Positions 9,375 to 48,920 of a DNA stretch of 64,000 nt are shown here, piece after piece (within the stretch, counting starts at the first letter, position 1; every line of letters starts with the position of its first letter). The notes under the pieces were generated by a model. It ran no database searches. It was not told the origin of the DNA and saw only the letters and a list, made by a program, of their open reading frames with translations. Source of the stretch: an uncultured Candidatus Saccharibacteria bacterium (GTDB taxonomy: Bacteria > Patescibacteriota > Minisyncoccia > Minisyncoccales > PEYH01); the NCBI GenBank assembly GCA_964388775.1, contig CAYMBW010000001.1:71317-135316 (forward strand), given 5' to 3'. The translations under genes were made by a program, and so were the position numbers.

Positions 9375-9417
9375 GTAGTTGAAAACAAGCAGGAAATAGG
9401 GTAATATTAAAGTGGAT
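9375..9417 (+). promoter_or_regulatory. direct repeat copy 2 / sigma70-like promoter for the downstream toxin pair
   Basis: TTGAAA, 17 nt, TAATAT; homologous to 6081-6118. Confidence 0.45.
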
Positions 9418-10852: not shown

Positions 10853-12138
10853 CAAAGAGAATTTTAAAAAAGATTATTCCCCAATTTTTCCTAAACTGGT
10901 ATTACCAGTTTTTTCCTCTATTAGGCGCTGTCTTGTATCGTTTTCCATCAAGAAAGATAATGGTGGTCGGAGTGACCGGAACTAACGGAAAATCCACGAC
11001 CGTTCAGTTGGTTTCAGATGTTTTGAGACAGGCGGGGTTCAACGTTGCTTCTATTTCTTCAATTCGTTTTCAGACAGGAGACGAGATATTGCCGAACAAG
11101 CTTAAAATGACGATGCCCGGTCGATGTAAACTTCAGCGTTTTTTGAGAAAAGCGGTCAATAGCGGATGCCAGTATGCTGTGCTGGAAGTGACTTCTGAAG
11201 GAATCAAGCAGTTCCGCCATAAATTTATTAACTTTGACGCGACAATTTTTACTAATTTAGAGAAAGAACACATTGAGTCGCATGGTTCGTTTGAAAAATA
11301 TAAGCAAGCTAAAGGAAAACTATTTCAAATATCCGGAATCAAAACTTCTATAATCAATTTGGACGATGGTTATACTGATTACTTTTTGAGTTTTCCGATC
11401 AAGGAGAAATGGGGATACCAAATGAAGTCAAAAGTTAAAAGTCAAAAATTAAAAATGAAAAATCCAAATTTGAATATCGTGGAGGGGGAGGAAATAAAAC
11501 TTTTTGAGGACCATTCTGAATTTTTTGTAAACGGACAAGATTTTTCCATCTCATTAGTGGGAGAGTTTAATATTTATAATGCTTTAGCAGCAATTTCTTT
11601 TGGGCTGTCGCAGGGGATAGATTTAAATGTGATGGCAGAGGCGCTGAAAAAAACAGAAGGGCTTTCAGGCAGAATGGAGTTTGTAATAAAAGAGCCGTTC
11701 CGGGTGGTAGTGGATTATGCCCACACGCCCAAAGCGCTTGAAAATGTATACAAAACGCTTTCTATTGGGAAACCGCAGAATGGCAAAAGCAAACTGATAT
11801 GTGTTTTGGGCTCTTGCGGAGGAGGGAGGGATAAGTGGAAGAGGCCGGTATTTGGGGCCTTGGCAGGACAATATTGCGATAGGATTATTTTAACCAACGA
11901 AGACCCTTATGACGAAGACCCGATTCAAATTATTGAGCAGGTTGAAGCGGGCGTTCCGCAGGGCGCTGATTATGAGAAAATTTTTGACAGGCGCGAGGCG
12001 ATTAAAAGAGCGTTGTCTTCAGCTAATCCCGGAGACACGATAGTTGTTACCGGTAAGGGCGGCGAGCCCTGGATTTGTGTAGCTGGAGGGAAAAAAATTC
12101 CTTGGGACGACCGGCAGATAGTCAGGGAAGAATTGTAA
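10849..12138 (+). CDS. Mur ligase family protein (MurE-like UDP-MurNAc-peptide ligase)
   Basis: P-loop VVGVTGTNGKSTT, DYAHTPKAL, C-terminal Mur ligase domain; contains a 7-nt tandem repeat insert (11427-11475). Confidence 0.75.
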   Translation: MTKRILKKIIPQFFLNWYYQFFPLLGAVLYRFPSRKIMVVGVTGTNGKSTTVQLVSDVLRQAGFNVASISSIRFQTGDEILPNKLKMTMPGRCKLQRFLRKAVNSGCQYAVLEVTSEGIKQFRHKFINFDATIFTNLEKEHIESHGSFEKYKQAKGKLFQISGIKTSIINLDDGYTDYFLSFPIKEKWGYQMKSKVKSQKLKMKNPNLNIVEGEEIKLFEDHSEFFVNGQDFSISLVGEFNIYNALAAISFGLSQGIDLNVMAEALKKTEGLSGRMEFVIKEPFRVVVDYAHTPKALENVYKTLSIGKPQNGKSKLICVLGSCGGGRDKWKRPVFGALAGQYCDRIILTNEDPYDEDPIQIIEQVEAGVPQGADYEKIFDRREAIKRALSSANPGDTIVVTGKGGEPWICVAGGKKIPWDDRQIVREEL

Positions 12139-12238
12139 AAAAAGGATTAAAGCTTGCAAAAACAAAGAATTTTGCTAAAGTGTCATTAACCATTAATCAT
12201 TGGTGGTTGCAAAGGGAGAATAAAGAATTAAAAAATTT

Positions 12239-12472
12239 ATGAATAAAAGAATGCCCAAAAGCGTTAGCAAGCATATTCGTCAAGAAAAGGCTCGTATTCG
12301 CAGGGAGAATTCAGATCCCGGAATTAAAGAAGAGATGATTAAACATTTATATGCTCAGTTTAATCCCGTGGCGCAGAAAGAGACAACATCTAAAAAAACA
12401 GACCCAAAACCAAAAATTTTAAAAACGTTTAAAAAAGCAAAGATGCTTAAAAAAGTAAAAACGCCCAAATGA
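12239..12472 (+). CDS. small basic hypothetical protein
   Basis: 77-aa Lys/Arg-rich ORF, 4-nt overlap with the next gene. Confidence 0.3.
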   Translation: MNKRMPKSVSKHIRQEKARIRRENSDPGIKEEMIKHLYAQFNPVAQKETTSKKTDPKPKILKTFKKAKMLKKVKTPK

Positions 12473-13422
12473 TGAGAATAAAAGATATCTATAATTTAGC
12501 TCTTCAGATGGGGATAGCTGCTGACCTTAGGGGAAAAGAAGCGGTAGAAAGATTTTTAAGCAAAAAACAGCGCGATTATGAAAAGCTTTCTGAAAAAGAA
12601 AAGCAGAATTTTGATTTAGAAATGCTCCAAAATCCTTATTCTGATTCCCGTATTTTAAATATATCTGATGACAGAGAGATAAAAAGGATTTTAGTCGGGA
12701 TAGACATAGACCCGGCTGAACTTTTAATGGCAAAAGAAATCGGGAATATTGATTTGATGATTTCTCATCACCCATTGGGAAAGGCCTTAGCCACTCTCCA
12801 TGAAGTGATGGAGCTTCAATGTGAGGTTCTCTCTCAATATGGCGTTCCGATAAATATAGCAGAGGGGTTGATGAAAGAGAAGATATCAGAGGTGGCTCGG
12901 GGCCTGAATAAATCAAATTCCGAAAGAACGGTTGATGCGGCTAAGCTTTTGAAATCTAATTTAATTTGTCTCCATACGGTTTGCGATAATCTGGCAGCCG
13001 ATTTTCTAAAAAAAGCTATTGAGAGCCATGGGCCGGAAACAGTGGGAGAGCTACTGGAGATTATAGAAAAGATTCCTGAATACCAATTATCGGCTAAAAA
13101 TGGAATTGGGCCTAAGATTTTTGTGGGCAAGGAAGAAAACCGTTGCGGGAAAATTGCTTTTACTGAAATCACCGGAGGCACCGAGGGCTCGCCAAAACTT
13201 TATGAAAAGATGGCGCAGGCAGGGATTGGAACTGTTGTCGGAATGCATGTTTCGGAAGAGCATAGGAAAGAGGCCGAGTCAGCTCTTATCAATATGGTAA
13301 TAGCCGGGCATATGCCCTCCGATTCTTTAGGCGTAAATTTATTTTTAGATGAGCTGGAGAAAAGAGGCATTGAGATTATCCCTTGTTCCGGCCTGATTAG
13401 AGTTTCCCGTATTAATAACTAA
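12469..13422 (+). CDS. NIF3 family (GTP cyclohydrolase 1 type 2-like) dinuclear metal centre protein
   Basis: DLMISHHP motif and overall NIF3 architecture with an inserted domain. Confidence 0.65.
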   Translation: MMRIKDIYNLALQMGIAADLRGKEAVERFLSKKQRDYEKLSEKEKQNFDLEMLQNPYSDSRILNISDDREIKRILVGIDIDPAELLMAKEIGNIDLMISHHPLGKALATLHEVMELQCEVLSQYGVPINIAEGLMKEKISEVARGLNKSNSERTVDAAKLLKSNLICLHTVCDNLAADFLKKAIESHGPETVGELLEIIEKIPEYQLSAKNGIGPKIFVGKEENRCGKIAFTEITGGTEGSPKLYEKMAQAGIGTVVGMHVSEEHRKEAESALINMVIAGHMPSDSLGVNLFLDELEKRGIEIIPCSGLIRVSRINN

Positions 13423-13437
13423 CCCGCCCGGGGCGGG
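13423..13437. repeat. GC-rich palindrome CCCGCCCGGGGCGGG (recurs at 62459; related CGCCCATGGCGGGC at 23347)
   Basis: Perfect palindrome directly after the NIF3 stop codon, followed by an AT-rich AATNAATAAT tract and a second palindrome GGCCATGGGCC (13484-13494). Confidence 0.6.
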
Positions 13438-13656
13438 CGAGTGATTAATGATAAATAATCAATAATTAATAATTGGCCATGGGCCGATTTTTTGTTATAA
13501 TAAAGTCATATAATAAAATAAGATGAAAAAATATTTTTCCAAACAAGCCAAAAGAGGCAAGGCGGGCAATACTGCCTTTAGAACCCCTTCTCCTTTTATC
13601 AGCAGAAAATGTCAGACAAAGCGCAAGATAATTCAAGGGAAATAAAAAACGAAGAA

Positions 13657-15258
13657 TTATTTTAGCTTTTTTATCATATATGTGTCTTTGAGAAAATAGC
13701 CGAGATGTCTGTAATAATCTCTTACCCCGACCCCGGAAATGACGGCAATATTTTTCAAACCGAATTCTTTTTGAACAATTTTTTCCGCTTCTTTCATTAA
13801 TCTCTTCCCAAGCCCTTGATGCTGGGGAGCTTTTGTTCTTTGGGAGATGGGCACTAATTTTCCATAAGTGTGAAGTTCCCTTATAATGCCGGAGTCCTTC
13901 AGGGCCGGCAGGACAATTTGGCCGGGAATCCTTAGGCGCAATAAACTGTGGATACGAGTTCGGTCTTTATTCTCAAAACTTAAGAATATCTCCTTTCCCT
14001 TGGAGGCCTCATAATCAGTCCGGAAAAGATATATTTTTTCTTTTGGATTGTAGTTGTCTTTAACTTCCCTGCATCTGATGCATTTGCATCGCCATCCTTG
14101 CTGTTTTGCGATTATTGTTATCATTTGCCTTAAATTAGATGTTTTGGTTCCGCCCTGCACCACATATTGGGAGGGGATGTCTCGGACAATTCTCTGTATC
14201 CGGCAGTAATACGGAACTGTTTTTTTGATTGCAATTATAATTTCCAAGAGCTGTTTTTCTGTGTACGGCTTGTATCCCTGTTTTTTCCAGATGTTATATA
14301 AAGGAGCTTTTTTTAGCAGGGCGCAGGGATATATTTTTAAATAATCAGGCCTAAAATCCGGATTAGAGAAAAGCTCTTTGAACATCTCAACATCCTTGTT
14401 GGGGGCGGCCCCCAACAGGTTGGGCATCATTTGAAAACAAATTTTGAAACCGGCATCTTTCAAGAGCCGGGTTGCCCTTATCGTCGCATCAATATTGTGC
14501 CCCCTTTTGTTTAACTTTAAAACACTGTCATAAACGCTCTGAACACCGAGCTCAACCCTTGTTATGCCCAGTTCTCTTAATCGTCTTATTTCTTTTCCAT
14601 CAATAAAATCCGGTCTTGTTTCAATTGTTATTCCGATTATTCTATGTTTGGCCTTTTCGTTTTCTTTTTGGGCATCCTTTAATTTTTTATTTTTTAGTTT
14701 CCGTTTTATATTTTCCGTTTTACATTTTTCATTATATTCGTTCGCCCCCCTAAAACATTCTTTAATAAACCAATTCTGGTAATTTTTCGGGTAAAAAGAC
14801 CAGGTTCCGCCGATAATCCTTAAATCAATTTTGTCGGTAGGGTGACCGATTGCTTCCAGGGCCTTGATTCTTACCTGAACCTGTTGAAAAGGACGGTACT
14901 TCATCATTATGGCCCGGGCCACGGCCGGCTCTTCTTTCAAATAACTTTTTGGAACTTTATCTTGGCTTGGGCAGAAAATACATTTTCCCGGACAGGGGAA
15001 AGCTTTTGTGAGTACGGCAACAATAACTATTCCTGAAAGCGAGCGGATTTTTCTGATTCGCAAAACTTCCTCAATTTTCGGATTGGGCTTTAATCTTTTA
15101 TCTTTGATTAAGATGTGATAAGCTTCTAATAATTGGGAGTTGGGAATCATTTTTGCGCTTTTTTTCTTGGAATAGAAACGTTTTAGGGAATTCAAAATTT
15201 CAGAGTTCAAGACCTTTTCCTTAGTAAGAGCAATAATGATTTCTTTCGCCGGTTCCAT
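13657..15258 (-). CDS. elp3: Elp3-like radical-SAM/GNAT tRNA wobble-uridine modification enzyme
   Basis: Radical SAM cluster FPCPGKCIFCP, C-terminal GNAT motif QHQGLGKRLMKEAEKI; 533 aa. Confidence 0.85.
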   Translation of the reverse strand: MEPAKEIIIALTKEKVLNSEILNSLKRFYSKKKSAKMIPNSQLLEAYHILIKDKRLKPNPKIEEVLRIRKIRSLSGIVIVAVLTKAFPCPGKCIFCPSQDKVPKSYLKEEPAVARAIMMKYRPFQQVQVRIKALEAIGHPTDKIDLRIIGGTWSFYPKNYQNWFIKECFRGANEYNEKCKTENIKRKLKNKKLKDAQKENEKAKHRIIGITIETRPDFIDGKEIRRLRELGITRVELGVQSVYDSVLKLNKRGHNIDATIRATRLLKDAGFKICFQMMPNLLGAAPNKDVEMFKELFSNPDFRPDYLKIYPCALLKKAPLYNIWKKQGYKPYTEKQLLEIIIAIKKTVPYYCRIQRIVRDIPSQYVVQGGTKTSNLRQMITIIAKQQGWRCKCIRCREVKDNYNPKEKIYLFRTDYEASKGKEIFLSFENKDRTRIHSLLRLRIPGQIVLPALKDSGIIRELHTYGKLVPISQRTKAPQHQGLGKRLMKEAEKIVQKEFGLKNIAVISGVGVRDYYRHLGYFLKDTYMIKKLK

Positions 15259-15261
15259 GTT

Positions 15262-15969
15262 ATGAAAAGCGATTACGCGGAATTTTTATTAGAGAAGACG
15301 AGGCGGGATTATGACGCGATTGCGGATGATTTTGATAAAAAACGGGATTATCTCCCCCCTGATTTTGCGATTTTACAGGATTATGTTGACAAGGGGGATA
15401 AGATTTTGGATTTGGGCTGCGGAAACGGACGACTTAAAGAAGTAATCGGAGACCGGGCTGATTATCACGGAACAGATATCTCCGGTTCTCTCATCAGAAT
15501 CGCTAAAAAGAAATATCCGGATGCCAATTTTTTTGTCAGCAAGCCGTTATCCCTGCCCTTTGAGGATAATTTTTTTGACAAGGTTTTTTGTTTGGCTGTT
15601 TTTCATCATATCCCATCAGTAAGGATAAGAAAAGAGTTTTTAAAGGAAATCAGGCGGGTTTTAAAGCCCGAAGCCCGGATTATCTTAACTGTCTGGGATT
15701 TAAATGGCAGCAAGAAAGCAAAGCGACTTTTATTAAAGTACACCCTGCTCAAATTAACAGGCAGGTCCAAACTTGATTTTAAAGATATTTTTTATCCCTG
15801 GAAGAACAGCGCCGGAAAAGTTGTCATAAACAGGTATATTCATATTTTCTCGGAAAAGGAGCTGGAAGAGATTATTAAAAGCGCCGGATTTATAATAAAA
15901 GAAAAGGGCATTTTGGAAAGAAGTCAAAAAGGAAAGAATATTTTTATAATCGCCCAAAAACCAAAATAG
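15262..15969 (+). CDS. class I SAM-dependent methyltransferase
   Basis: ILDLGCGNGRL motif I; divergent from elp3 with a 3-bp gap. Confidence 0.75.
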   Translation: MKSDYAEFLLEKTRRDYDAIADDFDKKRDYLPPDFAILQDYVDKGDKILDLGCGNGRLKEVIGDRADYHGTDISGSLIRIAKKKYPDANFFVSKPLSLPFEDNFFDKVFCLAVFHHIPSVRIRKEFLKEIRRVLKPEARIILTVWDLNGSKKAKRLLLKYTLLKLTGRSKLDFKDIFYPWKNSAGKVVINRYIHIFSEKELEEIIKSAGFIIKEKGILERSQKGKNIFIIAQKPK

Positions 15970-16024
15970 TTATAACTTTGTAACTTTGGAAACCAGTTGG
16001 GAACCTGGTTCCCAAAATGAGTCA

Positions 16025-16096
16025 GTCCCTGTGGTTCAACGGATAAAACACCTCCCTCCGGAGGAGGAAATGGCTGTTCGAATCAGCCCAGGGACA
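16025..16096 (+). tRNA. tRNA-Arg (anticodon CCG)
   Basis: Hand-folded cloverleaf: acceptor GTCCCTG/CAGGGAC, anticodon stem CCTCC/GGAGG with loop CTCCGGA, T-arm GGCTG-TTCGAAT-CAGCC, discriminator A; CCA not encoded. Confidence 0.7.
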
Positions 16097-16278
16097 CAAA
16101 AGTCCATGGGAGGAAGCATGGAGGGAAGTCCGACTTCCCCCTTTCCCTCGGAATAATTAACCTACAAATCATACTTGATTTTGGTCAGAAATTAAATGAC
16201 TTAACCAATGCCCCTATGTGCCCTTATGGTTAGATTTTAGATGATTCAATGCGAGGCATCGCAAGAATAGAGATTTTT

Positions 16279-16287: not shown

Positions 16288-16370
16288 AAACAAAAGAAAG
16301 GTCGGGTTAAGGTTAATTATTAATCGTTTATCACTAATTAATAATTACTTATCATTAATTGTTATCAACT

Positions 16371-19846: not shown

Positions 19847-20839
19847 TTGATTATGATTAATCAGGAATTGGCAAACATTTTTTACGAAATTGGATATTTT
19901 CTTGAAATGGAAGAAGCGGCTTTCAGGCCTCAGGCCTATGAAAAGGCAGCGATTGTTTTGGAGAGCACAAAAGAGAGTGTGCGCGATATCTATAAAAAAG
20001 GCGGAATCAAAGCGCTTATTGCGATGCCCGGAGTCGGCGAAAGCATTGCGAAAAAAATTGAGGAGTATCTTCAAACAGGAGAAATCCAATATTATGAAAA
20101 GTGGAAGAAGAAAGTGCCGGTTGATATTGAAGGACTAATGGCAATAGAGGGAGTGGGGCCAAAGACAATTCGGGTTTTATACGATGAACTCGGAATCACT
20201 AATATAAAAGAGTTGGAGCTGGCAGCGATGAACCATAAAATTTCTCCCCTTTTTGGATTTGGCGCCAAAAAAGAAAAAAATATTTTGCAAAACATTGTTT
20301 TTTTAAAGGCGACAAGAGAAAAATTTCCTTTTGAAAGAATTTTTCCCACAGCAAGAGACATCAAAACCAAATTAAACTCCTTAAAAGAGGTGAAGAAAGT
20401 TGATTTGGCCGGGTCATTGCGCCGAAGAGAGGATATGGTTGGCGATATTGACATTTTAGCAATAACTTCATGCCCGGAAAAAGTGGTGTCCTTTTTTGTT
20501 GGCTTGCCGGAGGTGATGAAGATTTGGGGCAAGGGCAAGACCAAGGCATCCGTCCGTTTGAAGCAGGGCATAGACGCGGACTTGAGAGTGGTGCCGGAGA
20601 TTAGCTATGGCGCGGCTCTTCAATATTTTACCGGTTCTAAAGAACATAATGTGGCTTTAAGAAAAATAGCCATTGAAAAAGGAATGAAACTTAATGAATA
20701 CGGGCTTTTTAAGGGGAAAAGAAGGATTGCCGGACAGAAAGAAAAAGATATTTATACAGCCCTTGGCGTCAAGTGGATTTTGCCTGAATTAAGGAAAGGC
20801 AAAAAAGAGATTGAATTTTTGATTGACGACAAGAGGTAG
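19847..20839 (+). CDS. DNA polymerase X family (Pol-beta-like, no PHP domain)
   Basis: HhH motifs (GVGESIAKKI, GVGPKTI) and nucleotidyltransferase motif GSLRRREDMVGDIDIL. Confidence 0.75.
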   Translation: MIMINQELANIFYEIGYFLEMEEAAFRPQAYEKAAIVLESTKESVRDIYKKGGIKALIAMPGVGESIAKKIEEYLQTGEIQYYEKWKKKVPVDIEGLMAIEGVGPKTIRVLYDELGITNIKELELAAMNHKISPLFGFGAKKEKNILQNIVFLKATREKFPFERIFPTARDIKTKLNSLKEVKKVDLAGSLRRREDMVGDIDILAITSCPEKVVSFFVGLPEVMKIWGKGKTKASVRLKQGIDADLRVVPEISYGAALQYFTGSKEHNVALRKIAIEKGMKLNEYGLFKGKRRIAGQKEKDIYTALGVKWILPELRKGKKEIEFLIDDKR

Positions 20840-20904
20840 CATTATCTGCGAGATTTTGTTATTATTAACAAAGGTTTAATAATTAATAATTAATAACTGA
20901 TAAT

Positions 20905-23306: not shown

Positions 23307-23385
23307 AGTAGTTAGTAATCAACAATCAATAGTTAATAATCAATCGCCCATGGCGGGCAAGTAATTAATGATTAGTGATAAATGA

Positions 23386-23733
23386 TTATTTGACCGCTTC
23401 TTTTACAATCTCTTCAAATATTTTTGGTTGTTCTTGGGCCAATTGGGCCAAAATTTTTCTGTCTATTGCGATATTTTTCTTCTTCAAGGCGCCCATTAGC
23501 TTACTGTAGGAAATATTTTGTTTTCTGGAACCGGCATTAATCTGGACTTGCCATAGTTGTCTTTTCTCCCGTTTTCTCACTTTTCTATCTCTGTAATTAT
23601 AAGCCAGGGCATGGAACAATGCTTCTTTGGCTAAGGTATATCTGTTTTTTCTGCCCCAACGGAATCCCTTGGTTTGTTCTAATAGTTTTTTTCTGCGTTT
23701 GTGGGCTGTTGTCCCTCGTTTTACTCTTACCAT
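23386..23733 (-). CDS. rplT: 50S ribosomal protein L20
   Basis: MVRVKRGTTAHKRRKKLLEQTKGFRWGRKN... Confidence 0.9.
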   Translation of the reverse strand: MVRVKRGTTAHKRRKKLLEQTKGFRWGRKNRYTLAKEALFHALAYNYRDRKVRKREKRQLWQVQINAGSRKQNISYSKLMGALKKKNIAIDRKILAQLAQEQPKIFEEIVKEAVK

Positions 23734-23734
23734 A

Positions 23735-23956
23735 TTATATAGACATCAATTTTTTAATTTTTTTGGACTCGGACTTTGGCAATTCCACCCATTTTCTTTT
23801 CTCCTGTATTATTTTCCCTGATTTCTTTGACCGAAAATGATTCTGCCCGGTTGCTTTGCGTAAAAGTTTTCCGCTTTTGGTTAGTTTAAATCTTTTGGTC
23901 AACGACTTTTTTGTCTTCGCCTTTCTTGTCTTCGTTTTTTTTGTCTTCTGCGACAT
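23735..23956 (-). CDS. rpmI: 50S ribosomal protein L35
   Basis: KSLTKRFKLTKSGKLLRKATGQNHF; conserved infC-rpmI-rplT order; start probably a non-ATG codon downstream of the tool start. Confidence 0.8.
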   Translation of the reverse strand: MSQKTKKTKTRKAKTKKSLTKRFKLTKSGKLLRKATGQNHFRSKKSGKIIQEKRKWVELPKSESKKIKKLMSI

Positions 23957-25315: not shown

Positions 25316-25419
25316 TGTTTTATGGTATCATAAACAAGCGAAATAGTAAGGGGAATGGAAAAATATTAATTGGAAAAGGTCGGGAAGATACAATCATTAA
25401 TCATTAAATATTTTTTAAT

Positions 25420-26479: not shown

Positions 26480-26608
26480 ATGGATTTTAAAAAAGCTTTA
26501 ACAGGTGGTTATGGGCCAGATGACGAATATAGAGGAGATGTTTCGGGGAGAGGAGAAAGCACTCTTAGCAGAGGAGATTTTTCGGGGAGAGGAGAGCGAG
26601 GGATTTAA
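26480..26608 (+). CDS. 42-aa small protein with tandem GD(V/F)SGRGE repeat
   Basis: ATG...TAA, below the ORF-track cutoff; internal 21-nt direct repeat gatgtttcggggagaggagaa / gatttttcggggagaggagag; own promoter and terminator. Confidence 0.35.
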   Translation: MDFKKALTGGYGPDDEYRGDVSGRGESTLSRGDFSGRGERGI

Positions 26609-29403: not shown

Positions 29404-32400
29404 ATGGAAATAATTTTTCCTAAAATTGAAGAGAAAATAATAAAGTTTTGGAAAGAAAACCGGATTTTTGAAAAATCCTTGGAGAAAAAAGGAGGAGATT
29501 TTATTTTTTATGAAGGTCCGCCAACGGCCAATGGAAAGCCGGGAGTTCATCACGTTTTAGCGAGAGCGCTAAAAGATATAATCTGCCGTTATCAGACAAT
29601 GAAAGGGAAAAGGGTTTTAAGAAAAGCGGGATGGGATGTGCATGGGCTTCCGGTTGAACTGGAAGTTGAAAAACAGCTTGGATTACGGGATAAGAAAGAC
29701 ATAGAGAAATACGGAATAGCGCAATTTAATAAAGAGTGCAAGAAATCCATTTGGAAATATGCCGGCGAGTGGAAGGACCTTACGGAAAGAATTGGCTATT
29801 GGCTGGATATGGAGAATCCTTATGTCACTTCCGACCCTTATTATATGGAAAGTGTTTTTTATATAATTAAAAGGGTCTGGGAAAAGGGGCTGTTGTATCA
29901 AGGATATAAAGTTCTGCCTTATTGTCCGCGTTGCGGGACCGGGCTTTCGTCCCATGAAGTGGCGCAGGGATACAAAAAAATAGCGGAGAAAGCCATATAT
30001 GTGAAGTTTAAAGTCCAAAGTCCAAAGTCAAAAGTCCAAAGTCCAAAGTCCAAGGTCAAAAATGTAGAGACGGAAGACAATACTTATTTATTGGTTTGGA
30101 CAACAACCCCGTGGACCTTGCCGGCAAATGTGGCCATAGCCGTTAATCCGAAAATTGAATATGTCTTGGCAGAAAAAAATGGAGAGCAATTAATTTTGGC
30201 TAAAGCGAGGCAGGCAGTTTTGGGTGATGATTTTGAAATAATGCAGGAATTTAAAGGAAAGGATTTGGTCGGATTAAATTATGCTCCATTGTTCGACGAG
30301 AGCGTTGTTTCCGCGCAATCAGAAGGAAAGAATATTTATCAAGTTTTGCCGGCGCACTTTGTCACCACAGAGGAAGGAACCGGATTAGTCCATATTGCTC
30401 CTGCCTTTGGTCAGGATGATATGGAACTTATAAAAAGTCAAAATACAAAACCCAAAACAAAAAGTGGCGGAAGCGGAGAATTTCCGATTTTATTACCCGT
30501 GGATGAAAGCGGTAGATTCAGGCCGGAGGTAAAAGAATGGGCAGGGATATTTGTAAAAGACGCTGACCCGTTGATTACGGAACACTTGAGACAAAAGGGG
30601 CTTCTATTTAAGGAAGAAACACATGAACATGATTATCCATTTTGCTGGAGGTGCGATACTCCGCTTTTATACTACGCCAAAAAAAGCTGGTTTATAAAAA
30701 CAACAGCTCTTAAGAATAAATTAATAAGCAATAATCAAAAAATTAACTGGATGCCTTTGCACATAAAGGATGGAAGATTCGGCGAGTGGTTAAACGAGCT
30801 TAAGGATTGGGCTATTTCCCGCGAAAGATATTGGGGCACGCCCTTACCTATTTGGGAATGCCAAAAGTGCGCCGAAAAAATAGTTATTGGTTCAAGAAGT
30901 GATTTATTAAAACAAACATTTACGGCTAACAAATATTTTGTATTAAGGCACGGAGAGGCCGTCTCTAATGTAGAGGATTCGTTTTCTTCTTGGCCGGAGG
31001 GCAAAAAAGCGCCGCTTACTGAAAAAGGAAAAGAACAGCTGAAAAAACAAATACCATCATTGAAAAATAAAAAAATTGATTTAATAATTTCGTCAGATAT
31101 TTTGCGGACTTCGCAAACCGCGGAGATAATGGCAGATGCCCTGGGCGCCCAGGTTGTTTATGATGAACGTTTACGCGAGATAAACACCGGCTTATTGAAC
31201 GGAAGAGCGGTTCAGGAGGGAGTCAAGTACTTTAACCCGGACAATAGTTTGACTCGCGACCAGATTCTTTTGAAAAGATTTGAAGCCCAATTCCCCGAGG
31301 GAGAGAATTATTCAGAGGTAAAATTAAGAGAGCTGGATTTCATAGATGATATTAATAGAAAATATAAGGGCAAAAAGATATTGCTCGTGAGCCACGAGTT
31401 GCCAATTATGATGCTTAAAAGCATTGTCCTTGGTTTGACGAATAAAGAGTTCGTTGATAACGAGGAGGACCTTTCTATCGATACGGGAAAATTTCAGGAA
31501 TTGGATTTTCGTGCTTTTCCATATAATACAGAGGGAGAATTGGATTTTCATAGGCCATATATTGATGAAATAAAATTTGCTTGTCCCAAATGCGGAGGGA
31601 TAATGCAGCGAGTGCCGGAAGTTATGGATTGCTGGCTTGACTCCGGCTCAATGCCATTCGCTCAAGGCCATTGGCCCCTTAATGACCAATTATCAATAAT
31701 CAAAAATCATTTAGCGCCGCCGGAGTTATTCCCTGCTGACTACATCAGCGAGGCGATAGACCAAACAAGAGGATGGTTTTATACTCTTTTAGCGATTTCC
31801 ACTTTATTGGGATTCGGGCCGAGCTATAAAAATGTGATTGTTTCGGGGCACGTGCTGGATGAGAATAGTCAAAAAATGTCTAAATCCAAGGGCAATGTGG
31901 TTGACCCCTGGGAGATGGTGAAGAAATATGGAGCAGACGCTTTAAGATGGTATTTTTATACGGTTAACCAGCCGGGAGACCCAAAATCATTTATTGAAAA
32001 AGATGTTGATAACGCCCTAAAGAAATTCATTCTCACTTTATGGAATTGTCATATTTTCCTCCAGACATACAAGCCCAAAAATTTAGACCTAAATTCGCAG
32101 AGATTAAAGCCAAACAATTTGCTTGACAAATGGATTCTGTCTAAACTTAATGGTTTAATTATGGAAGTAACCGTCAACATTGATGCCTATAATATTACTG
32201 CCGCAGCGCGTCTGATTGAGGATTTTGTCATAAATGATTTGTCCCTATGGCATATTAGACGTTCCCGCAATCGATTGCAGAGACCCAAGGACGCAAAAGA
32301 AGCGGAAGAATCAGCATCTATTTTAGCAGCCGTTCTTACCAATATTTGTAAATTAACTGCGCCATTTATTCCTTTTTTGAGCGAAGAGATTTATCGAGAG

Positions 32401-32982
32401 ATAAATGGAAAAGACAAGAGCGTTCATTTAGCAAGCTGGCCGAAAGCGGATAAGGCGAAAATTAACAAGGAATTGGAAGAAGAAATGAAGGCGATTAGAG
32501 AGATTGTCGCCCTTGGCCTTAAAATAAGGAGCGATGAAGGAATCAAAGTAAGGCAACCGCTCAAAAAACTAAAAATTAAAAATGAAAAATTAAAAGTAGG
32601 GGAAGGACTGATTGAGTTGATAAAAGAGGAATTAAATGTTAAAGAGGTGGAGTTTCAGGTTGATGGAGAAAAGAGTGACAGTTGGGATTTGGAATATGAC
32701 CTTGAAATCACCGAAGAGCTTAAAAACGAAGGGATTATTAGGGACATTATCAGACAGATTCAAAATATGAGGAAAAAATCCGGGTGTAAACCAGAGGACA
32801 GAATTACGATTTATTACTCCGCAATAGGGAGTTTGTCCGGGTTGATGACCGGGAAAAAACAGGAATTATTGTCTCAAGTCGGAGCAGAGGATTTAATTTC
32901 TTCAAAAGAAGACAAGGGACTTAAAATAGAATCAATTTCAAAAATAGACGGTCAAGAGCTTTGGTTGGGCTTAAAATTATAG
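29404..32982 (+). CDS. ileS: isoleucyl-tRNA synthetase with ~200-aa inserted histidine-phosphatase (PGAM-like) domain and a 7-nt-repeat insert
   Basis: HIGH (PPTANGKPGVHHVLA), KMSKS (KMSKSKGN); an RHGE domain (VLRHGEAVSN...LTEKGKEQ...SSDILRTSQTA...SHE) lies between the CQKC and CPKCGG zinc motifs; KVQSPKSKVQSPKSKV encoded by 30012-30060. Confidence 0.9.
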   Translation: MEIIFPKIEEKIIKFWKENRIFEKSLEKKGGDFIFYEGPPTANGKPGVHHVLARALKDIICRYQTMKGKRVLRKAGWDVHGLPVELEVEKQLGLRDKKDIEKYGIAQFNKECKKSIWKYAGEWKDLTERIGYWLDMENPYVTSDPYYMESVFYIIKRVWEKGLLYQGYKVLPYCPRCGTGLSSHEVAQGYKKIAEKAIYVKFKVQSPKSKVQSPKSKVKNVETEDNTYLLVWTTTPWTLPANVAIAVNPKIEYVLAEKNGEQLILAKARQAVLGDDFEIMQEFKGKDLVGLNYAPLFDESVVSAQSEGKNIYQVLPAHFVTTEEGTGLVHIAPAFGQDDMELIKSQNTKPKTKSGGSGEFPILLPVDESGRFRPEVKEWAGIFVKDADPLITEHLRQKGLLFKEETHEHDYPFCWRCDTPLLYYAKKSWFIKTTALKNKLISNNQKINWMPLHIKDGRFGEWLNELKDWAISRERYWGTPLPIWECQKCAEKIVIGSRSDLLKQTFTANKYFVLRHGEAVSNVEDSFSSWPEGKKAPLTEKGKEQLKKQIPSLKNKKIDLIISSDILRTSQTAEIMADALGAQVVYDERLREINTGLLNGRAVQEGVKYFNPDNSLTRDQILLKRFEAQFPEGENYSEVKLRELDFIDDINRKYKGKKILLVSHELPIMMLKSIVLGLTNKEFVDNEEDLSIDTGKFQELDFRAFPYNTEGELDFHRPYIDEIKFACPKCGGIMQRVPEVMDCWLDSGSMPFAQGHWPLNDQLSIIKNHLAPPELFPADYISEAIDQTRGWFYTLLAISTLLGFGPSYKNVIVSGHVLDENSQKMSKSKGNVVDPWEMVKKYGADALRWYFYTVNQPGDPKSFIEKDVDNALKKFILTLWNCHIFLQTYKPKNLDLNSQRLKPNNLLDKWILSKLNGLIMEVTVNIDAYNITAAARLIEDFVINDLSLWHIRRSRNRLQRPKDAKEAEESASILAAVLTNICKLTAPFIPFLSEEIYREINGKDKSVHLASWPKADKAKINKELEEEMKAIREIVALGLKIRSDEGIKVRQPLKKLKIKNEKLKVGEGLIELIKEELNVKEVEFQVDGEKSDSWDLEYDLEITEELKNEGIIRDIIRQIQNMRKKSGCKPEDRITIYYSAIGSLSGLMTGKKQELLSQVGAEDLISSKEDKGLKIESISKIDGQELWLGLKL
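30012..30060 (+). repeat. 7 tandem units of the heptanucleotide AGTCCAA/GTCCAAA inside ileS
   Basis: Period 7 nt; in frame overall (encodes SKVQSPK heptads); related arrays at 11427-11475, 43048-43075, 46214-46248, 46893-46920, 47164-47195 and 47570-47625. Confidence 0.85.
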
Positions 32983-41262: not shown

Positions 41263-41949
41263 ATGCCAGAATTTTTTGTCGTTGCTACTCCAATAGGAAA
41301 TCTTCAAGATATATCCTTCCGAGCCCTTGAAGCGCTGAAAAGGGCTGATTTCATTTTGTGCGAGGATACGAGAGTAAGCCAAAAATTGTTAAATCACTTC
41401 GGAATAAGCAAGCCATTGATAAGTTATCATCAGCATTCAAAATCGGCAAAAGTAGAATCAATTATAAGATTATTAAAGCAAGGCAAGAATGTTGCCCTTA
41501 TAACTGATGCCGGCACGCCGGGCATATCTGACCCGGGGAATAAGTTGATATGGGACATAACTCAAGAGCTGGGTGAGAGCGTAAATATTATTCCGATTCC
41601 CGGGCCATCTGCGCTCGCAACAATCGCCTCAGTGGCAGGCATCCCTATGGACAAGTTTTTGTTCTTAGGTTTCCCGCCTCAGAAAAAAGGAAGAAATAAA
41701 TTTTTCAAGGAAGTTATTGATTCTAAATATCCGGTAATTTTTTATGAGTCGCCCTATAGAATTATAAAATCCCTTAAACAACTTCAAGAATTAGACCTGG
41801 AAATTGAGGCAATAGTTGGCAGGGAATTGACTAAAAAATTTGAAACAATTTATCGCGGGAGAATTGACAAAGTGATAGAGTTAATAGAAAAAGACAAGAC
41901 AAAAGGCGAATTCGCCGTTATTGTCAAAAGAGATGGCAAAGAAAAATAA
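41263..41949 (+). CDS. rsmI: 16S rRNA (cytidine1402-2'-O)-methyltransferase
   Basis: FFVVATPIGNLQDISFRALEALKRADFILCEDTR (tetrapyrrole methylase fold). Confidence 0.85.
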   Translation: MPEFFVVATPIGNLQDISFRALEALKRADFILCEDTRVSQKLLNHFGISKPLISYHQHSKSAKVESIIRLLKQGKNVALITDAGTPGISDPGNKLIWDITQELGESVNIIPIPGPSALATIASVAGIPMDKFLFLGFPPQKKGRNKFFKEVIDSKYPVIFYESPYRIIKSLKQLQELDLEIEAIVGRELTKKFETIYRGRIDKVIELIEKDKTKGEFAVIVKRDGKEK

Positions 41950-43396
41950 AAAATTCTATATCTCCACGGCCTTGCCTTATGTCAATTCCATTCCCCATAT
42001 CGGCTTTGCTTTGGAAATCATATATGCAGATGTCTTGGCCCGTTATCATCGCAGTTTAGGCGAGGATGTCTTCTTTTTGACCGGCACTGACGAAAATGGG
42101 TTGAAAATTGCTCGGGCAGCGGAAGAATCAGGAGTTCCGGTGAAAGAATTTGCCAGGAAGAATGCCGAGGCCTTCCGCGAACTCAAAGAAATCCTTAACT
42201 TGTCTTTTGATGATTTTATAAGAACCACCGAAGAAAGGCATATTAAAGCGGTTTATAAATTATGGCAGACGTGTAAGCAAGATATCTATAAAAAGAAGTA
42301 TCAAGGCCTTTATTGTGTCGGATGCGAACGATTCTATAAAGAAGAAGATTTGGCCGATGGACTGTGTCCGGAACACAAAACAAAACCGGAATTTATAGAA
42401 GAAGAAAATTATTTTTTTAAGCTTTCTAAATACGAAGAACAGCTCAAAGAATTGATAGAAGAAGATATTTTGAAAATTGTCCCGCAAACCCGCAAAAACG
42501 AAGTTTTAAGTTTTATTAACAAAGGGCTTGAGGATATTTGTATTTCTCGTTCGTCTAAGAGAGCGAGGAATTGGGGCATACCGGTGCCGGGCGACGAGAG
42601 CCAATTTTGCTGGTGCTGGTTTGATGCGGTGATAAACTATATCAGTGCTTTGGGATATGGGGTTGATGATAAAAATTTTCAGCAATGGTGGCAGGCAAAT
42701 AATAATAATAAAATTCATGTTATTGGCAAGGGAATTTTAAATTTCCATGCCCTTTACTGGCCCGCAGCCCTTCTGTCCGCTGGATTATCCCTGCCTAATA
42801 TTTTGTTTGTTCACGGTTATGTCACCGTGGGAGGGCAGAAAATGTCTAAAAGTTTGGGGAACATTGTTAGCCCCAAAGAATTAGCCGGGAAATACGGGAT
42901 TGACGCGGTGCGATACTTTTTTTTAAGAGAGGCATCTCCTTTTGATGACAGCGATTTTACCATTGAGAAATTTGAAGAGAGATATAATGCGGATTTGGCG
43001 AAGGGGCTGGGGAATCTCGTTGCGAGGGTAGTAACCCTCGCAAGTAAGTCCAAAGTCCAAAGTCCAAAGTCCAAAGTAAAAATTACAATTCAAAACCCAA
43101 AACCAAAAGAAGAAATAGCCAAAACTCAAGAGAATTATAAAAGGGCATTAGAGGAATTTAAATTTAATGAAGCGTTGCGAACAATCTGGGGGCTAATAGG
43201 ATTTTGCGATAGATATATTGAGCAGGAGCGGCCTTGGGAGGGCACGGAAAACAAATCATTAATTATTAATGATTTGTTGTTGGCAATTGAAGAAGTCGCC
43301 AAATTACTTGAACCATTCTTGCCAGAGACCTCGCAAAAAATAACGGCCCAACTCCAATCCTTAGAATCTGTTCCTCTCTTTCCCCGTTTGGCCTGA
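41921..43396 (+). CDS. metG: methionyl-tRNA synthetase (short form) with 7-nt-repeat insert
   Basis: YVNSIPHIGF (HIGH-like), KMSKSLGN, zinc knuckle CVGCERF...CPEH; SKSKVQSPKSKVKI encoded by GTCCAAA repeats at 43048-43075. Confidence 0.9.
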   Translation: MSKEMAKKNKKFYISTALPYVNSIPHIGFALEIIYADVLARYHRSLGEDVFFLTGTDENGLKIARAAEESGVPVKEFARKNAEAFRELKEILNLSFDDFIRTTEERHIKAVYKLWQTCKQDIYKKKYQGLYCVGCERFYKEEDLADGLCPEHKTKPEFIEEENYFFKLSKYEEQLKELIEEDILKIVPQTRKNEVLSFINKGLEDICISRSSKRARNWGIPVPGDESQFCWCWFDAVINYISALGYGVDDKNFQQWWQANNNNKIHVIGKGILNFHALYWPAALLSAGLSLPNILFVHGYVTVGGQKMSKSLGNIVSPKELAGKYGIDAVRYFFLREASPFDDSDFTIEKFEERYNADLAKGLGNLVARVVTLASKSKVQSPKSKVKITIQNPKPKEEIAKTQENYKRALEEFKFNEALRTIWGLIGFCDRYIEQERPWEGTENKSLIINDLLLAIEEVAKLLEPFLPETSQKITAQLQSLESVPLFPRLA

Positions 43397-45511: not shown

Positions 45512-48085
45512 ATGAACAGTTATGACCCAAAAGCAATAGAGGGCAAATGGCAGGCAAAATGGGAAGAGGGGAAGATGTTTGAAGCCAAGGATTCTTCAAA
45601 AAAACCCAAGTTTTTTGTTTTGGATATGTTCCCCTATCCTTCGGGTGACGGTCTTCATGTCGGTCATCCGCGGGGATATGTGGGGACTGATGTGATTGCC
45701 CACTATATGAGGATGAAAGGATATAATGTCTTGCATCCTATGGGTTGGGATGCTTTTGGTTTGCCGGCAGAGAATTACGCCATTAAAACAGGAATTCTTC
45801 CTGCTATTTCCACAAAGAAAAACATAGCAAGATTTAAAGAGCAGATGAAGTTAATCGGCCTTTCTTATGATTGGTCGCGGGAAATTAATACCACTGACCC
45901 GAATTATTATAAATGGACTCAATGGATTTTTCTTTTACTTTTTGAACGAGGCCTTGCGTACCAAGAAACATTGCCGATTAATTGGTGTCCTTCCTGTAAA
46001 ACGGGCCTTGCCAACGAAGAAGTAGTAGCCGGCAGATGTGAGCGTTGTGGCGCGGAAGTTACGAAAAAGAACATTAAACAGTGGGTTTTGAAAATTACGG
46101 ATTATGCGGAAGAATTACTTGAAGGATTAAATAAATTGGATTGGCCGGAAAAAATAAAAGAGATGCAGAGAAATTGGATAGGGAAATCTGTTGGCGCGGA
46201 TATAATATTTCAAGTTAAAAGTCCAAAGTTAAAAGCCCAAAGTCCGAATCCGGAAATCGGAAATTTTATCAAAGTATTTACAACGAGGCCGGATACGATT
46301 TTCGGAGCGACATTTATGGTCTTAGCGCCCGAACATGAATTGGTAGAAAAAATTACCACTCCGGGACAATCGGCTCGGGTGAAGGAATATCAAGAAAATA
46401 CAAAAAACAAGATGGATATTGAGCGTCAACTTGAGGACAAAGAGAAAACAGGAGTTTTTACCGGCGCTTTCGCTATCAATCCGGCCAATAGCAAAGAAAT
46501 CCCGATTTATATTGCGGATTATGTCTTGCCTTTTTATGGCTACGGCGCAATTATGGCAGTGCCGGGGCACGATGAGAGAGATTTTTCATTCGCCAAAAAA
46601 TATAATCTGCCGATTGTAAAAGTGATAGAGGACCAAGGCCCAAAGTTCGAAGTCCAAAATTTAGAAGAAAGAGGAATAGAGGAGGTTTATGAAGGGGAGG
46701 GGATTTTGATTAACTCCGACAGATTTGACGGGACGGAATCCGAAAAGGCGGGCAAAAAGATTGTAAAATGGATAGAGGGAGCTGAGCCGACCGTGAATTA
46801 TAAATTAAGGGATTGGATATTTTCAAGACAAAGATATTGGGGAGAGCCCATCCCGCTAATTTTTTGCGAGAACTGCAAAAAATTAGCGGAAAATCCAAAG
46901 TCCAAAATTCAAAAACCAAAATTTAGCAAAGGAGAATTATTAAATCCGGGATGGATTGCTTTGCCAAAAGAGAATTTGCCTTTAGTTTTGCCGGAGCTTG
47001 AAAAATATGAGCCGACCGGCACGGGCGAGTCGCCTTTGGCAAGCCGGCCTGAGTGGGTAAAAACAATTTGTCCCAGGTGCGGCGGCCGGGCTTTCCGTGA
47101 GACCAATACAATGCCCCAGTGGGCTGGCTCTTGTTGGTATTTCCTCGCGTATGTAATGCGAGAAAATCCAAAATCCAAAATCCAAAATCCAAAATTGGTT
47201 TGGGACAAAAAGAAGATTAAATATTGGTTGCCTGTTGATTTCTATATTGGCGGGGCAGAACACGCCGTCTTACATCTTTTGTACTCCCGCTTTTGGATAA
47301 AAGTTTTATCTGACGCAAAAATTATAGAATTTGACGAGCCGTTTAAAAAGTTGGTTACCCTCGGCTTGATTTTGGCGTCCAATGGTCAAAAAATGTCCAA
47401 GTCGCGGGGCAATGTAATTAATCCAGACGATATTATTGAGCAATACGGAGCTGATGCGTTCCGTCTTTATGAAATGTTTATGGGTCCCTTCAACCAGCCG
47501 ATTGCTTGGGATACTGAAAATATCATAGGGGTTAGAAGATTTTTAGAGAAAATCTGGAAGTTTTTTGAAAAATCTCAAATTCCAAATTCCAAATCTCAAA
47601 AAAATTCCAATATTCAGAATACAAACATTGAAAGAATGCTGCATCAAACAATAAAGAAAGTTACCGGAGATATTGAAACTCAAAAATTTAATACTGCCAT
47701 TGCTTCTATGATGGAGCTTATTAATAAAATTCAAAATTCGAAAGCTCAAATTCAAATCAATACCTTAGAAACTTTTTTAAAGATTTTAGCGCCGTTTGCC
47801 CCGCATATTGCGGAAGAGCTATGGAGCAGATTGGGACATGAAGAATCTCTATTCAAGGAGAAATGGCCGGAATATAATCCGAAGATGATTGTTGAAGAAG
47901 AAGTCAAATTAGTCATTCAAATTAATGGCAAGGTTCGTGGTACGATTGTTGTTTCGGCGGATTTGCCTGGAAAAGAGGCGGTCAAATTAGCCATTGAGTC
48001 CGATGTTGCCGAAAAATGGCTTGAGAACAAAAAAATCCAAAAAACGATTTTTGTCAAAGGCAAATTAATTAATTTTGTGATTTAG
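45512..48085 (+). CDS. leuS: leucyl-tRNA synthetase with several 7-nt-repeat inserts
   Basis: HVGHPRGY (HIGH), KMSKSRGN; inserts KSPKLKAQSPNP, ENPKSKIQKPKF, ENPKSKIQNPK and KSQIPNSKSQKNSNIQ encoded by heptanucleotide repeats. Confidence 0.9.
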   Translation: MNSYDPKAIEGKWQAKWEEGKMFEAKDSSKKPKFFVLDMFPYPSGDGLHVGHPRGYVGTDVIAHYMRMKGYNVLHPMGWDAFGLPAENYAIKTGILPAISTKKNIARFKEQMKLIGLSYDWSREINTTDPNYYKWTQWIFLLLFERGLAYQETLPINWCPSCKTGLANEEVVAGRCERCGAEVTKKNIKQWVLKITDYAEELLEGLNKLDWPEKIKEMQRNWIGKSVGADIIFQVKSPKLKAQSPNPEIGNFIKVFTTRPDTIFGATFMVLAPEHELVEKITTPGQSARVKEYQENTKNKMDIERQLEDKEKTGVFTGAFAINPANSKEIPIYIADYVLPFYGYGAIMAVPGHDERDFSFAKKYNLPIVKVIEDQGPKFEVQNLEERGIEEVYEGEGILINSDRFDGTESEKAGKKIVKWIEGAEPTVNYKLRDWIFSRQRYWGEPIPLIFCENCKKLAENPKSKIQKPKFSKGELLNPGWIALPKENLPLVLPELEKYEPTGTGESPLASRPEWVKTICPRCGGRAFRETNTMPQWAGSCWYFLAYVMRENPKSKIQNPKLVWDKKKIKYWLPVDFYIGGAEHAVLHLLYSRFWIKVLSDAKIIEFDEPFKKLVTLGLILASNGQKMSKSRGNVINPDDIIEQYGADAFRLYEMFMGPFNQPIAWDTENIIGVRRFLEKIWKFFEKSQIPNSKSQKNSNIQNTNIERMLHQTIKKVTGDIETQKFNTAIASMMELINKIQNSKAQIQINTLETFLKILAPFAPHIAEELWSRLGHEESLFKEKWPEYNPKMIVEEEVKLVIQINGKVRGTIVVSADLPGKEAVKLAIESDVAEKWLENKKIQKTIFVKGKLINFVI
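48035..48084 (+). repeat. 50-bp direct repeat copy 1 (native 3' end of leuS)
   Basis: ATCCAAAAAACGATTTTTGTCAAAGGCAAATTAATTAATTTTGTGATTT identical to 48814-48863; both copies end in a stop codon (TAG vs TGA). Confidence 0.8.
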
Positions 48086-48886: not shown

Positions 48887-48920
48887 ATTTTTAACTTTTC
48901 ACTTTTAATTTTTAACTTGG
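48887..48920 (+). repeat. T-rich element ATTTTTAACTTTTCAYTTTTAAYTTTTAAYTTG (second copy at 58728-58760)
   Basis: About 33-nt near-identical direct repeat in two distant intergenic regions. Confidence 0.5.

Follow-up and report, generated by a model that had tools for sequence, protein, structure and literature searches.

Heptanucleotide tandem arrays in intergenic DNA and, translated, in essential enzymes of a Patescibacteria lineage

Heptanucleotide repeats were reported in 2007 by Mrazek et al. to be over-represented in prokaryotes, and polymerase slippage was proposed as their source, according to the summaries in PMC4679880 and PMC4692102. Heptanucleotide long simple sequence repeats (LSSRs) include the cyanobacterial STRR and GGGGA(T/C)T repeats, GGGAATC in Xanthomonas and TAACTGA in Beggiatoaceae and cyanobacteria. 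Here, we describe a family of period-7 arrays in a 64,000-nucleotide stretch of contig CAYMBW010000001.1 (assembly GCA_964388775.1, positions 71,317 to 135,316 of the forward strand; hereafter the window), which comes from an uncultured Candidatus Saccharibacteria bacterium of the Patescibacteriota. The arrays occur in non-coding DNA and also inside the genes of the isoleucyl-, leucyl- and methionyl-tRNA synthetases (ileS, leuS, and metG) and of the Mur ligase MurE, where they are translated.

A coding heptanucleotide repeat is known from neuO of Escherichia coli K1 (phage CUS-3), whose AAGACTC repeat is translated only if the copy number, which is altered by slippage, is divisible by 3 (PMC13001214). 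Our literature search returned no relevant paper that ties heptamer repeats to bacteria of the candidate phyla radiation (CPR) or mentions the units and peptides described below. Hydrophilic low-complexity Asn/Lys inserts are found in surface loops of essential enzymes, including aminoacyl-tRNA synthetases (aaRSs), in AT-rich genomes of the Plasmodium falciparum type. These inserts are lineage-specific, turn over fast and are ascribed to DNA-level repeat expansion in A-rich sequence; their DNA period is 3 nt or a multiple, and their peptide repeats are homopolymeric or short.

The arrays in the window share with LSSRs the tandem 7-nt unit and the heptamer as the over-represented length, a genome-specific consensus unit at many dispersed loci, a sporadic phylogeny and a higher density in non-coding DNA; tandem repetition exceeds chance, and whole units change between relatives. 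They differ from LSSRs in that the LSSR families described so far are mostly intergenic and under-represented in coding sequence, whereas 13 of the 20 arrays found here lie in genes, mostly those of essential housekeeping enzymes. Furthermore, LSSR units are G-rich and G-quadruplex-forming or contain stops, while the units here are A-rich and stop-free, and LSSR surveys tied long-unit repeats to large genomes, while the host here is a small-genome CPR bacterium. As in neuO, the 7-nt unit is read in all three frames as a heptapeptide repeat and the frame is needed, but neuO is a non-essential, phase-variable gene with 3 to 53 repeats at its 5' end, OFF in most strains, whereas the arrays here have 2 to 7 units and are internal to essential genes. 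Like the Plasmodium-type inserts, they form hydrophilic low-complexity segments in variable loops between conserved blocks; unlike them, the 7-nt period yields a 7-residue peptide period and 21-nt steps. Diversity-generating retroelements (DGRs), which are common in CPR genomes, likewise rewrite a coding segment at the DNA level with its length kept, but they do so from a template repeat, with adenine-templated changes in a C-terminal variable region, whereas the arrays are template-less and tandem and display no adenine-specific pattern.

The window has a GC content of ~39% and a coding share of 89.3% (non-coding, 10.7%), and the homologs of its LeuRS and IleRS all belong to Patescibacteria (Paceibacteria- or Parcubacteria-like metagenome-assembled genomes [MAGs]). 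Periods 2 to 15 were scanned against Markov shuffles, in addition to Tandem Repeats Finder, with array thresholds at a score of at least 11 or at least 9; the background set for period counts consisted of contigs from a LeuRS-profile search, mostly from distant phyla and with a best identity of 56% among the matches listed. At a score of at least 11, eight period-7 arrays were observed against 0.1 in the shuffles. Period 14 was as strong as period 7, the remaining periods gave 0 to 2 arrays each, and periods 3, 6, 9, and 12 were not enriched; the recurrence of 5-mers was enriched at 14 and 21 besides 7. The excess of self-identity at lags 7, 14, and 21 was gone after masking the arrays, and thus the signal stems from discrete arrays. 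The dimer AAADTCCAAADTCC, with at most one mismatch, occurs 15 times versus 1.5 expected, on the plus (sense) strand every time. We counted 20 period-7 arrays, 13 within genes and 7 non-coding. All seven arrays that an initial annotation had placed in ileS, metG, leuS, and a Mur ligase gene are present at those positions; the gene identities were checked with NCBIfam, which names the Mur ligase as MurE. Beyond these seven, we found a fifth array in leuS (47726-47756), ileS sites B to D, arrays in a radical-SAM gene and in pth, and the seven intergenic ones. The array-bearing genes and their arrays are the following.

10849-12138, plus strand: murE gene (NCBIfam TIGR01085, 368 bits)
11425-11475, plus strand: murE array, degenerate, AAGTCAA AAGTTAA AAGTCAA AAATTAA AAATGAA AAATCCA; encodes KSKVKSQKLKMKNPN
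14678-14733, minus strand: array in the radical-SAM gene, period 7/14, A-rich on the sense strand of the gene
29404-32982, plus strand: ileS gene, 1192 aa (NCBIfam TIGR00392, 902 bits; Pfam tRNA-synt_1 and His_Phos_1), with four array sites (A to D)
30010-30061, plus strand: ileS site A, AAAGTCC x7.4, 88% matches; encodes KVQSPKSKVQSPKSKVK
30433-30465, plus strand: ileS site B, degenerate and A-rich, AAAAGTC AAAATAC AAAACCC AAAACAA; encodes KSQNTKPKTKS
31687-31709, plus strand: ileS site C, weak array CAATAAT x3.3
32564-32595, plus strand: ileS site D, AAAAACT AAAAATT AAAAATG AAAAATT; encodes KLKIKNEKLK
41933-43396, plus strand: metG gene (NCBIfam NF008900, 530 bits)
43046-43110, plus strand: metG array, AAGTCCA x4.6 at 43046-43077 with 100% matches, then a decayed 7-nt tail; encodes KSKVQSPKSKVKITIQNPKPK
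45512-48085, plus strand: leuS gene, 857 aa (NCBIfam TIGR00396, 1055 bits), with five arrays
46212-46248, plus strand: leuS site 1, AAGTTAA AAGTCCA AAGTTAA AAGCCCA AAGTCCG
46890-46922, plus strand: leuS site 2, AAAATCC AAAGTCC AAAATTC AAAAACC
47163-47195, plus strand: leuS site 3, AAAATCC x4.7, 100% matches; encodes NPKSKIQNPKL
47570-47625, plus strand: leuS site 4, degenerate AAATCTC/AAATTCC units; encodes KSQIPNSKSQKNSNIQNTN
47726-47756, plus strand: leuS site 5, AAAATTC-type array
61937-61952, minus strand: short pth array, AAAGCAA x2.3 on the sense strand

AAAGTCC is common to ileS, metG, and two leuS sites, AAA[AGT]TCC units occur at at least six loci in the window, and nearly all units contain a C followed by a run of A. 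The non-coding arrays, given without strand, are listed below.

13444-13474: ATTAATA/AATAATC, stop triplets present
20876-20904: TTAATAA x4.1, with a PolX-like gene on one side and a CARDB gene on the other
23364-23388: ATTAATG x3.6
25392-25407: AATCATT x2.3
48889-48918: TTTTAAC x4.3, upstream of glmS
58662-58687: ATAATCA x3.7
58728-58759: ATTTTTA/period 14, adjoining tRNA-Leu

With 7 of the 20 arrays in 10.7% of the sequence, non-coding DNA is ~4.5 times denser in arrays than coding DNA (p=0.003), and arrays are also found in a DGR reverse transcriptase gene and the radical-SAM gene, so the targeting of essential genes that the initial annotation had suggested is not supported. Its attribution of the periodicity to the DNA level agrees with the perfect 7-nt arrays, with the intergenic arrays of the same period and with the absence of enrichment at any period beyond 7 and its multiples. 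The class Ia aaRS genes leuS, ileS, and metG account for 13% of the coding sequence but hold 9 of the 13 arrays found within genes (p=6e-6). The ArgRS and class II aaRS genes of the window carry no arrays, nor do the similarly long ligA, glmS, topA, and TPR genes of the loci compared.

The coding arrays follow a strand rule and a stop rule. The sense strand is the A-rich one in 13 of 13 coding arrays, including those in minus-strand genes of the window; arrays in the minus-strand metG and tatD genes of the related locus L140 read GTTTTGA on the plus strand, i.e., their sense is A-rich as well. Read in the sense direction, the units yield heptapeptides that are basic and hydrophilic, for instance KVQSPKS and KIQNPKS, and that carry a charge of +1 to +2 per 7 residues; the antisense products would be GLWTLDF and GFWILDF. 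In the coding arrays of highest purity (ileS site A, metG, leuS sites 2 to 5, and pth), none of the three sense frames has a stop, and in the degenerate arrays (murE, leuS site 1, and ileS sites C and D) the stop triplets are confined to unread frames. Each of the seven intergenic arrays, by contrast, has stop triplets on both strands, in two or more of the three frames of either strand. Only stop-free, in-frame arrays survive in genes, in line with the earlier supposition that frame-preserving outcomes alone are retained. Purine-only units such as AAAGAAG, which are favored by composition and would encode harmless K/E/R peptides, were not seen as arrays, and therefore composition and a stop filter alone do not account for the choice of unit.

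Like the neuO repeat, the arrays have a unit length not divisible by 3 and are located within coding sequence, and so they might be contingency loci that switch genes on and off by single-unit slippage. We consider this very improbable: the host genes ileS, leuS, metG, and murE are single-copy and essential, so that an OFF state would be lethal, and the arrays are short (at most 7.4 units) and lie in the interior of the genes, away from the 5' end. No ON/OFF switching among strains was seen; within the species, neither the members of the 90% clusters, which differ solely in the start-codon call or in one residue, nor the contig DNA contain copy-number or frame-shifted variants of an array, although these contigs are near-clonal and offer little power. 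In two metagenome scans, a pattern built on the flanks of the ileS array had no match, although it does fit the window; the organism is evidently missing from the collection scanned. Independent JGI contigs match the window over ~60 kb with the exception of one single-nucleotide polymorphism (SNP) and 13 changes in the variable region of a DGR, which indicates that the sampled population is nearly clonal. The same contigs bear on sequencing or assembly artefacts, which the initial annotation had named as a caveat. Proteins of the window were found identical on 10 to 35 contigs from four sources (JGI, ENA, NCBI, and Logan), with intact frames, and homologous arrays are present in six other species; this refutes an artefact, to which we assign a negligible probability.

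We compared the DNA of nine related species, here labeled L140 to L143, L310 to L312, L315, and L316. Loci L140 to L143, whose LeuRS is 61 to 66% identical to that of the window and contains low-complexity patches, have 11, 6, 4, and 12 period-7 arrays, respectively (score of at least 9, 11 to 23 kb each), against 0 to 2 for other periods. Each of them has 4 to 7 arrays in leuS, which accounts for 22 of the 33 arrays, and the others lie in metG, tatD, a class II aaRS gene, and intergenic DNA. L315 and L316 are perfectly syntenic with the window (IleRS 79% and 76% identical) and have 10 and 7 arrays. Period 7 is the sole clearly enriched period in these six species. L310 to L312, instead, are syntenic and similar in GC content but have a patch-free LeuRS and 0 to 1 arrays, which makes the arrays a trait of the genome and not of the gene. 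The family therefore occurs in this Patescibacteria lineage and in only part of its relatives, and its distribution on a neighbor-joining tree of LeuRS is patchy, with at least three separate prone clades. A protein-level period-7 score on this tree proved too insensitive for patches of two or three heptads, and the tree alone was used. Short T-rich "arrays" in a PAP2 membrane protein of L315 and L316 correspond to a conserved Phe-rich transmembrane segment and probably reflect codon composition rather than true arrays.

Two further observations concern other CPR genomes. A Moranbacteria contig (UBA4824; L058) has six perfect period-7 arrays at 196-12618 of its 16.7 kb, with the unrelated units TATAACC, TGTTTCA, AATTTCT, and ATTGAAA, five of the six arrays lying outside open reading frames of at least 150 aa; it is another CPR lineage with the heptamer-repeat habit. 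In L312, glmS (12869-16213) contains an intein that holds a LAGLIDADG endonuclease.

In the prone species, the loops of ileS, leuS, and metG are arrayed at the same positions, with differing units. The metG site (around aa 367) is also arrayed in L140 (AAAACTC) and L143 (AAAATGC), and ileS has its arrays at the same four sites in the window, L315, and L316. At site A, the units are AAAGTCC in the window, CAAATGT, AAATCCA, and ATTCAAA in L315, and AAAGCCA in L316, and the segment from YVKF to WTTT spans 37, 49, and 31 residues, respectively, among proteins 76 to 79% identical. Between L315 and L316, the length of the hairpin array changes by exactly 21 nt (3 x CAAAATT), as expected from the earlier suggestion that copy number changes in steps of three units. 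Site B consists of CAAAACA x3.7 in L316 and of AAAACGA-type units in L315, and at site C, L316 has GCAAAAT x3.9 as well as a longer insert. Site D is of equal length in all three species; in L316, however, the same three-position change in two adjacent units has produced AAAAGCC without a change in length, and AAAAGCC is also the unit of the site A array of L316, 2.6 kb away. A similar case is leuS site 1 of L143, a perfect AAATTTC x4 whose length equals that of array-free orthologs. Identical units make up 13.1% of within-genome array pairs but 2.9% of between-genome pairs (permutation p<2e-4), where a composition-weighted stop-free null gives ~0.1% per unit. Taken together, turnover and unit sharing do not fit birth followed by decay alone; they indicate that homogenization is ongoing within arrays and is probably acting between arrays as well.

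These facts are also what would be expected if a dedicated copying or insertion activity, with selection as a mere filter, spread pre-formed arrays by template switching, by short-tract gene conversion, or through a lineage-specific enzyme (a reverse transcriptase, a small family-X polymerase, or a Y1 transposase being candidates) that writes the favored unit into A-rich loop-coding DNA. The presence of AAAGTCC at several unlinked sites of one genome, the higher unit sharing within than between genomes, the overwriting of L316 site D by the site A unit without an indel, and the AAATTTC x4 of L143 at the exact ancestral loop length speak for such an activity, the patchiness of prone clades among sisters would fit a factor that is gained and lost, and the window does encode a DGR reverse transcriptase with Avd, a 328-aa PolX-like polymerase, and a Y1 transposase. 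However, the flanks of nine arrays have no shared termini, target duplications, or common sequence, the Y1 transposase upstream of leuS is also present in non-prone L311, the DGR has its own template/variable pair and another target gene and makes adenine-specific changes only, and no gene was matched to the trait in these partial loci. Moreover, RecA-dependent conversion between arrays of at least 28 nt, together with slippage, could yield the same patterns. We regard a dedicated activity as a minority possibility. Equally tentative is its fullest form, a heritable, unit-specific activity in a 7-nt register, whether a property of polymerase or repair or an element, that is gained and lost, rewrites loops of essential enzymes, and homogenizes arrays genome-wide. 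If real, it would drive the formation and renewal of protein loops from the DNA level, and selection would do no more than filter the outcome.

Three specific causes were discarded. Insertion of a mobile element, a miniature inverted-repeat transposable element (MITE), or a repetitive extragenic palindromic (REP) sequence was rejected on the lack of a shared border sequence in the nine array flanks and on the occurrence of all AAADTCC arrays on one strand. The Y1 transposase beside leuS was rejected on its presence in a non-prone relative, and the DGR on the finding that its template and variable repeats (7634-7763 and 7077-7206) are the sole such pair in the window and the arrays have no such partner. 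The DGR itself is complete (6300-9240), with a target gene at 6300-7208 containing the variable repeat, a template repeat 90% identical to it in which all differences are at template adenines, a bAvd gene at ~7816-8166 on the minus strand, and the reverse transcriptase at 8188-9240. The 13 positions that differ between the window and a same-strain JGI contig all fall in the variable repeat (7092-7172), against one SNP in the other ~60 kb, and on this comparison the DGR appears to be active. The gene at 19847-20839, whose synteny is kept in L315 and L316, encodes a small DNA polymerase of family X (Pol-beta-like, 328 to 330 aa) that lacks a PHP domain. A role for this polymerase as a gap-filling enzyme prone to slippage is speculative. 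The IS200-like Y1 transposase (PF01797; 44700-45383) lies directly upstream of leuS, with the same layout in L311, and is fused with LeuRS in the homolog P0085 (1067 aa). Whether a genome is repeat-prone shows no correlation with the presence of this transposase.

The unit AAA[AGT]TCC was also considered as a special cross-phylum motif and rejected: a tandem of three units is found in 57 viral contigs, including many GC-rich ones, and two permuted controls of the same composition gave 52 and 114 hits, so the unit itself is not special. Arrays of these units were also seen elsewhere. A Verrucomicrobia MAG (L009, 18474-21130; GC 62%) has AAAATCC arrays three times within 3 kb, one of them in frame at the N-terminal end of a MoxR-type AAA ATPase (MTADNLKSEIQNPKSS) and the other two as an inverted pair, (GGATTTT)n and (AAAATCC)n, around a 23S_rRNA_IVP (Avd-like four-helix-bundle) gene. 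GC-rich (57 to 67%) phage-like contigs (L137, L086, L110, L122, and L138) carry (AAAGTCC)n and (AAAATCC)n arrays, in L137 (272-528 and 5580-6149) immediately before start codons, within short gene junctions and in both orientations, and in L086 immediately after a start codon.

Against solved structures, the array loops of LeuRS, IleRS, MetRS, and MurE are gaps or variable segments, hydrophilic and of low complexity, between conserved blocks. Compared with the solved IleRS 8c8w, the IleRS of the window is 17 aa longer at the site A array, which occupies the beta-hairpin that immediately precedes the CP1 editing domain, and its site B loop is longer by ~12 aa. Site 1 of leuS is in the equivalent hairpin before the editing domain (+11 aa versus the LeuRS of Thermus thermophilus), site 2 lies within a 24-aa segment missing from the T. 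thermophilus enzyme (+2 aa versus the nearest CPR ortholog), and site 3 adds 7 aa (21 nt, three units) to array-free orthologs. The proposal that the arrays occupy sites absent from canonical enzymes is hence only partly true: in metG, the array is in a loop of the anticodon-binding domain only 2 aa longer than in the solved MetRS 2csx, and murE exceeds the solved MurE by only 3 aa. In these two genes, the arrays replace existing loop sequence rather than adding to it. In ~60 CPR LeuRS orthologs, the four same loops are empty or have different K/N/S/Q/I/P patches, and in some CPR lineages LeuRS loops hold entire inserted domains. An AlphaFold2 model of LeuRS (mean predicted local distance difference test [pLDDT] of 71) places the arrays in coil with pLDDT below 50 (aa 241-249, 464-467, 547-576, and 690-699 for sites 1 to 4), and it counts as support only, since segments of the catalytic core are partly ill-modeled too.

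Inserted domains are found in both LeuRS and IleRS. CPR LeuRS proteins of 960 to 1090 aa with an extra Pfam domain include P0009, with a NUDIX domain, and P0016, P0027, P0067, P0082, and P0088, with a serine hydrolase (PF06821) or alpha/beta hydrolase domain; the ~170-aa hydrolase insert of P0016 and P0027 sits in the hairpin equivalent to leuS site 1 of the window (46212-46248). The catalytic core of the IleRS of the window is split into two halves by an inserted histidine-phosphatase domain (His_Phos_1, PGM family; residues ~504-699). This domain is missing from solved IleRS structures and present in 120 of the 120 best Patescibacteria homologs and is, judged by these homologs, a conserved CPR feature.

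The concentration in LeuRS, IleRS, and MetRS, in the window as in leuS of the four related loci, would also fit adaptive loops, i.e., lysine-rich flexible loops of class I aaRSs and MurE that serve tRNA or substrate binding or interactions, with repeats as the quickest mutational route to them. The charge of the heptapeptides and the maintenance of patches at the same loops across lineages with a LeuRS 55 to 70% identical to that of the window agree with this, and lysine-rich tRNA-binding peptides are appended to aaRSs in eukaryotes. However, sisters of the same ecology and genome type do without patches (L310 to L312 and many LeuRS orthologs), peptide and length at a site vary freely between close relatives, as in the YVKF-WTTT segment of IleRS, the ArgRS and class II aaRSs of the window are array-free, and arrays are denser in non-coding DNA and occur in unrelated genes as well. 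An adaptive origin is thus deemed unlikely, somewhat more so than a dedicated activity. Since class Ia aaRS loops also take up unrelated insertions, even whole domains, tolerance is a simpler explanation than targeting.

The view that we favor, with a probability of roughly 0.6, sees the arrays as a family of heptanucleotide microsatellites in which slippage and homogenization drive evolution and selection acts as a filter. A-rich units with a C-AAA(A) core (AAAGTCC, AAAATCC, AAATTCC) would be born and altered as replication or repair misaligns the DNA in a 7-nt register, and they would be homogenized within arrays and apparently also between dispersed arrays, so that every genome would come to have its own favored units; slippage and conversion are the molecular mechanism we infer. 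The process would be active everywhere, with its highest array density in non-coding DNA. In genes, selection would retain an array only if the net change in length is a multiple of 3 nt, if the read frame has no stops (which for a pure array of at least three units extends to all three frames), if the A-rich strand is the sense strand, giving basic hydrophilic K/S/Q/N/P/I heptapeptides instead of hydrophobic G/F/W/L ones, and if the array falls in a variation-tolerant loop. LeuRS, IleRS, and MetRS would accumulate most arrays through having several such loops, and basic disordered loops may be harmless or mildly helpful in tRNA-binding enzymes.

Several points weigh against this view. Slippage by a single unit would frameshift an essential gene, so stepwise birth of an array there is hard to achieve by simple slippage, and the missing purine-only units are those that composition favors. 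One unit can recur at unlinked sites and in distant species: leuS site 3 is AAAATCC in the window and likewise in L141, where the flanks have reached saturation with changes. The aaRS enrichment, given the array-free ligA, glmS, topA, and TPR genes, could reflect function and not tolerance, and copy-number variation was not seen within the species, in contigs with one SNP in ~60 kb. It is these gaps in the slippage account, namely the 7-nt period, unit choice, array birth, and the difference between prone and non-prone genomes, that leave some room for a dedicated copying activity and, to a lesser extent, for adaptive loops.

The excess of heptanucleotide repeats in bacteria has been known since 2007 and regarded as an unexplained, intergenic curiosity; here, such repeats form translated parts of enzymes that are among the most conserved ones in a minimal genome. 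They make and remodel protein loops over short evolutionary distances, in 21-nt steps and by length-neutral overwrites. Sister lineages with and without the trait, together with fixed orthologous sites, make the 7-nt register and the choice of unit testable, and the same system can be used to assess the share of non-triplet microsatellites in the evolution of protein insertions. On the practical side, the patches inflate CPR protein lengths and can mislead alignments, phylogenies, and structure predictions based on marker genes such as leuS and ileS.

As to other features of the window, Rfam matched only a tmRNA and two tRNAs. Other tandem repeats have periods that are multiples of 3: a period-21 repeat at 16314-16364, after tRNA-Arg (16025-16097), a period-15 repeat inside infC (23906-23948, minus strand), and a period-18 repeat at 26531-26595, upstream of an AF1548-like gene.

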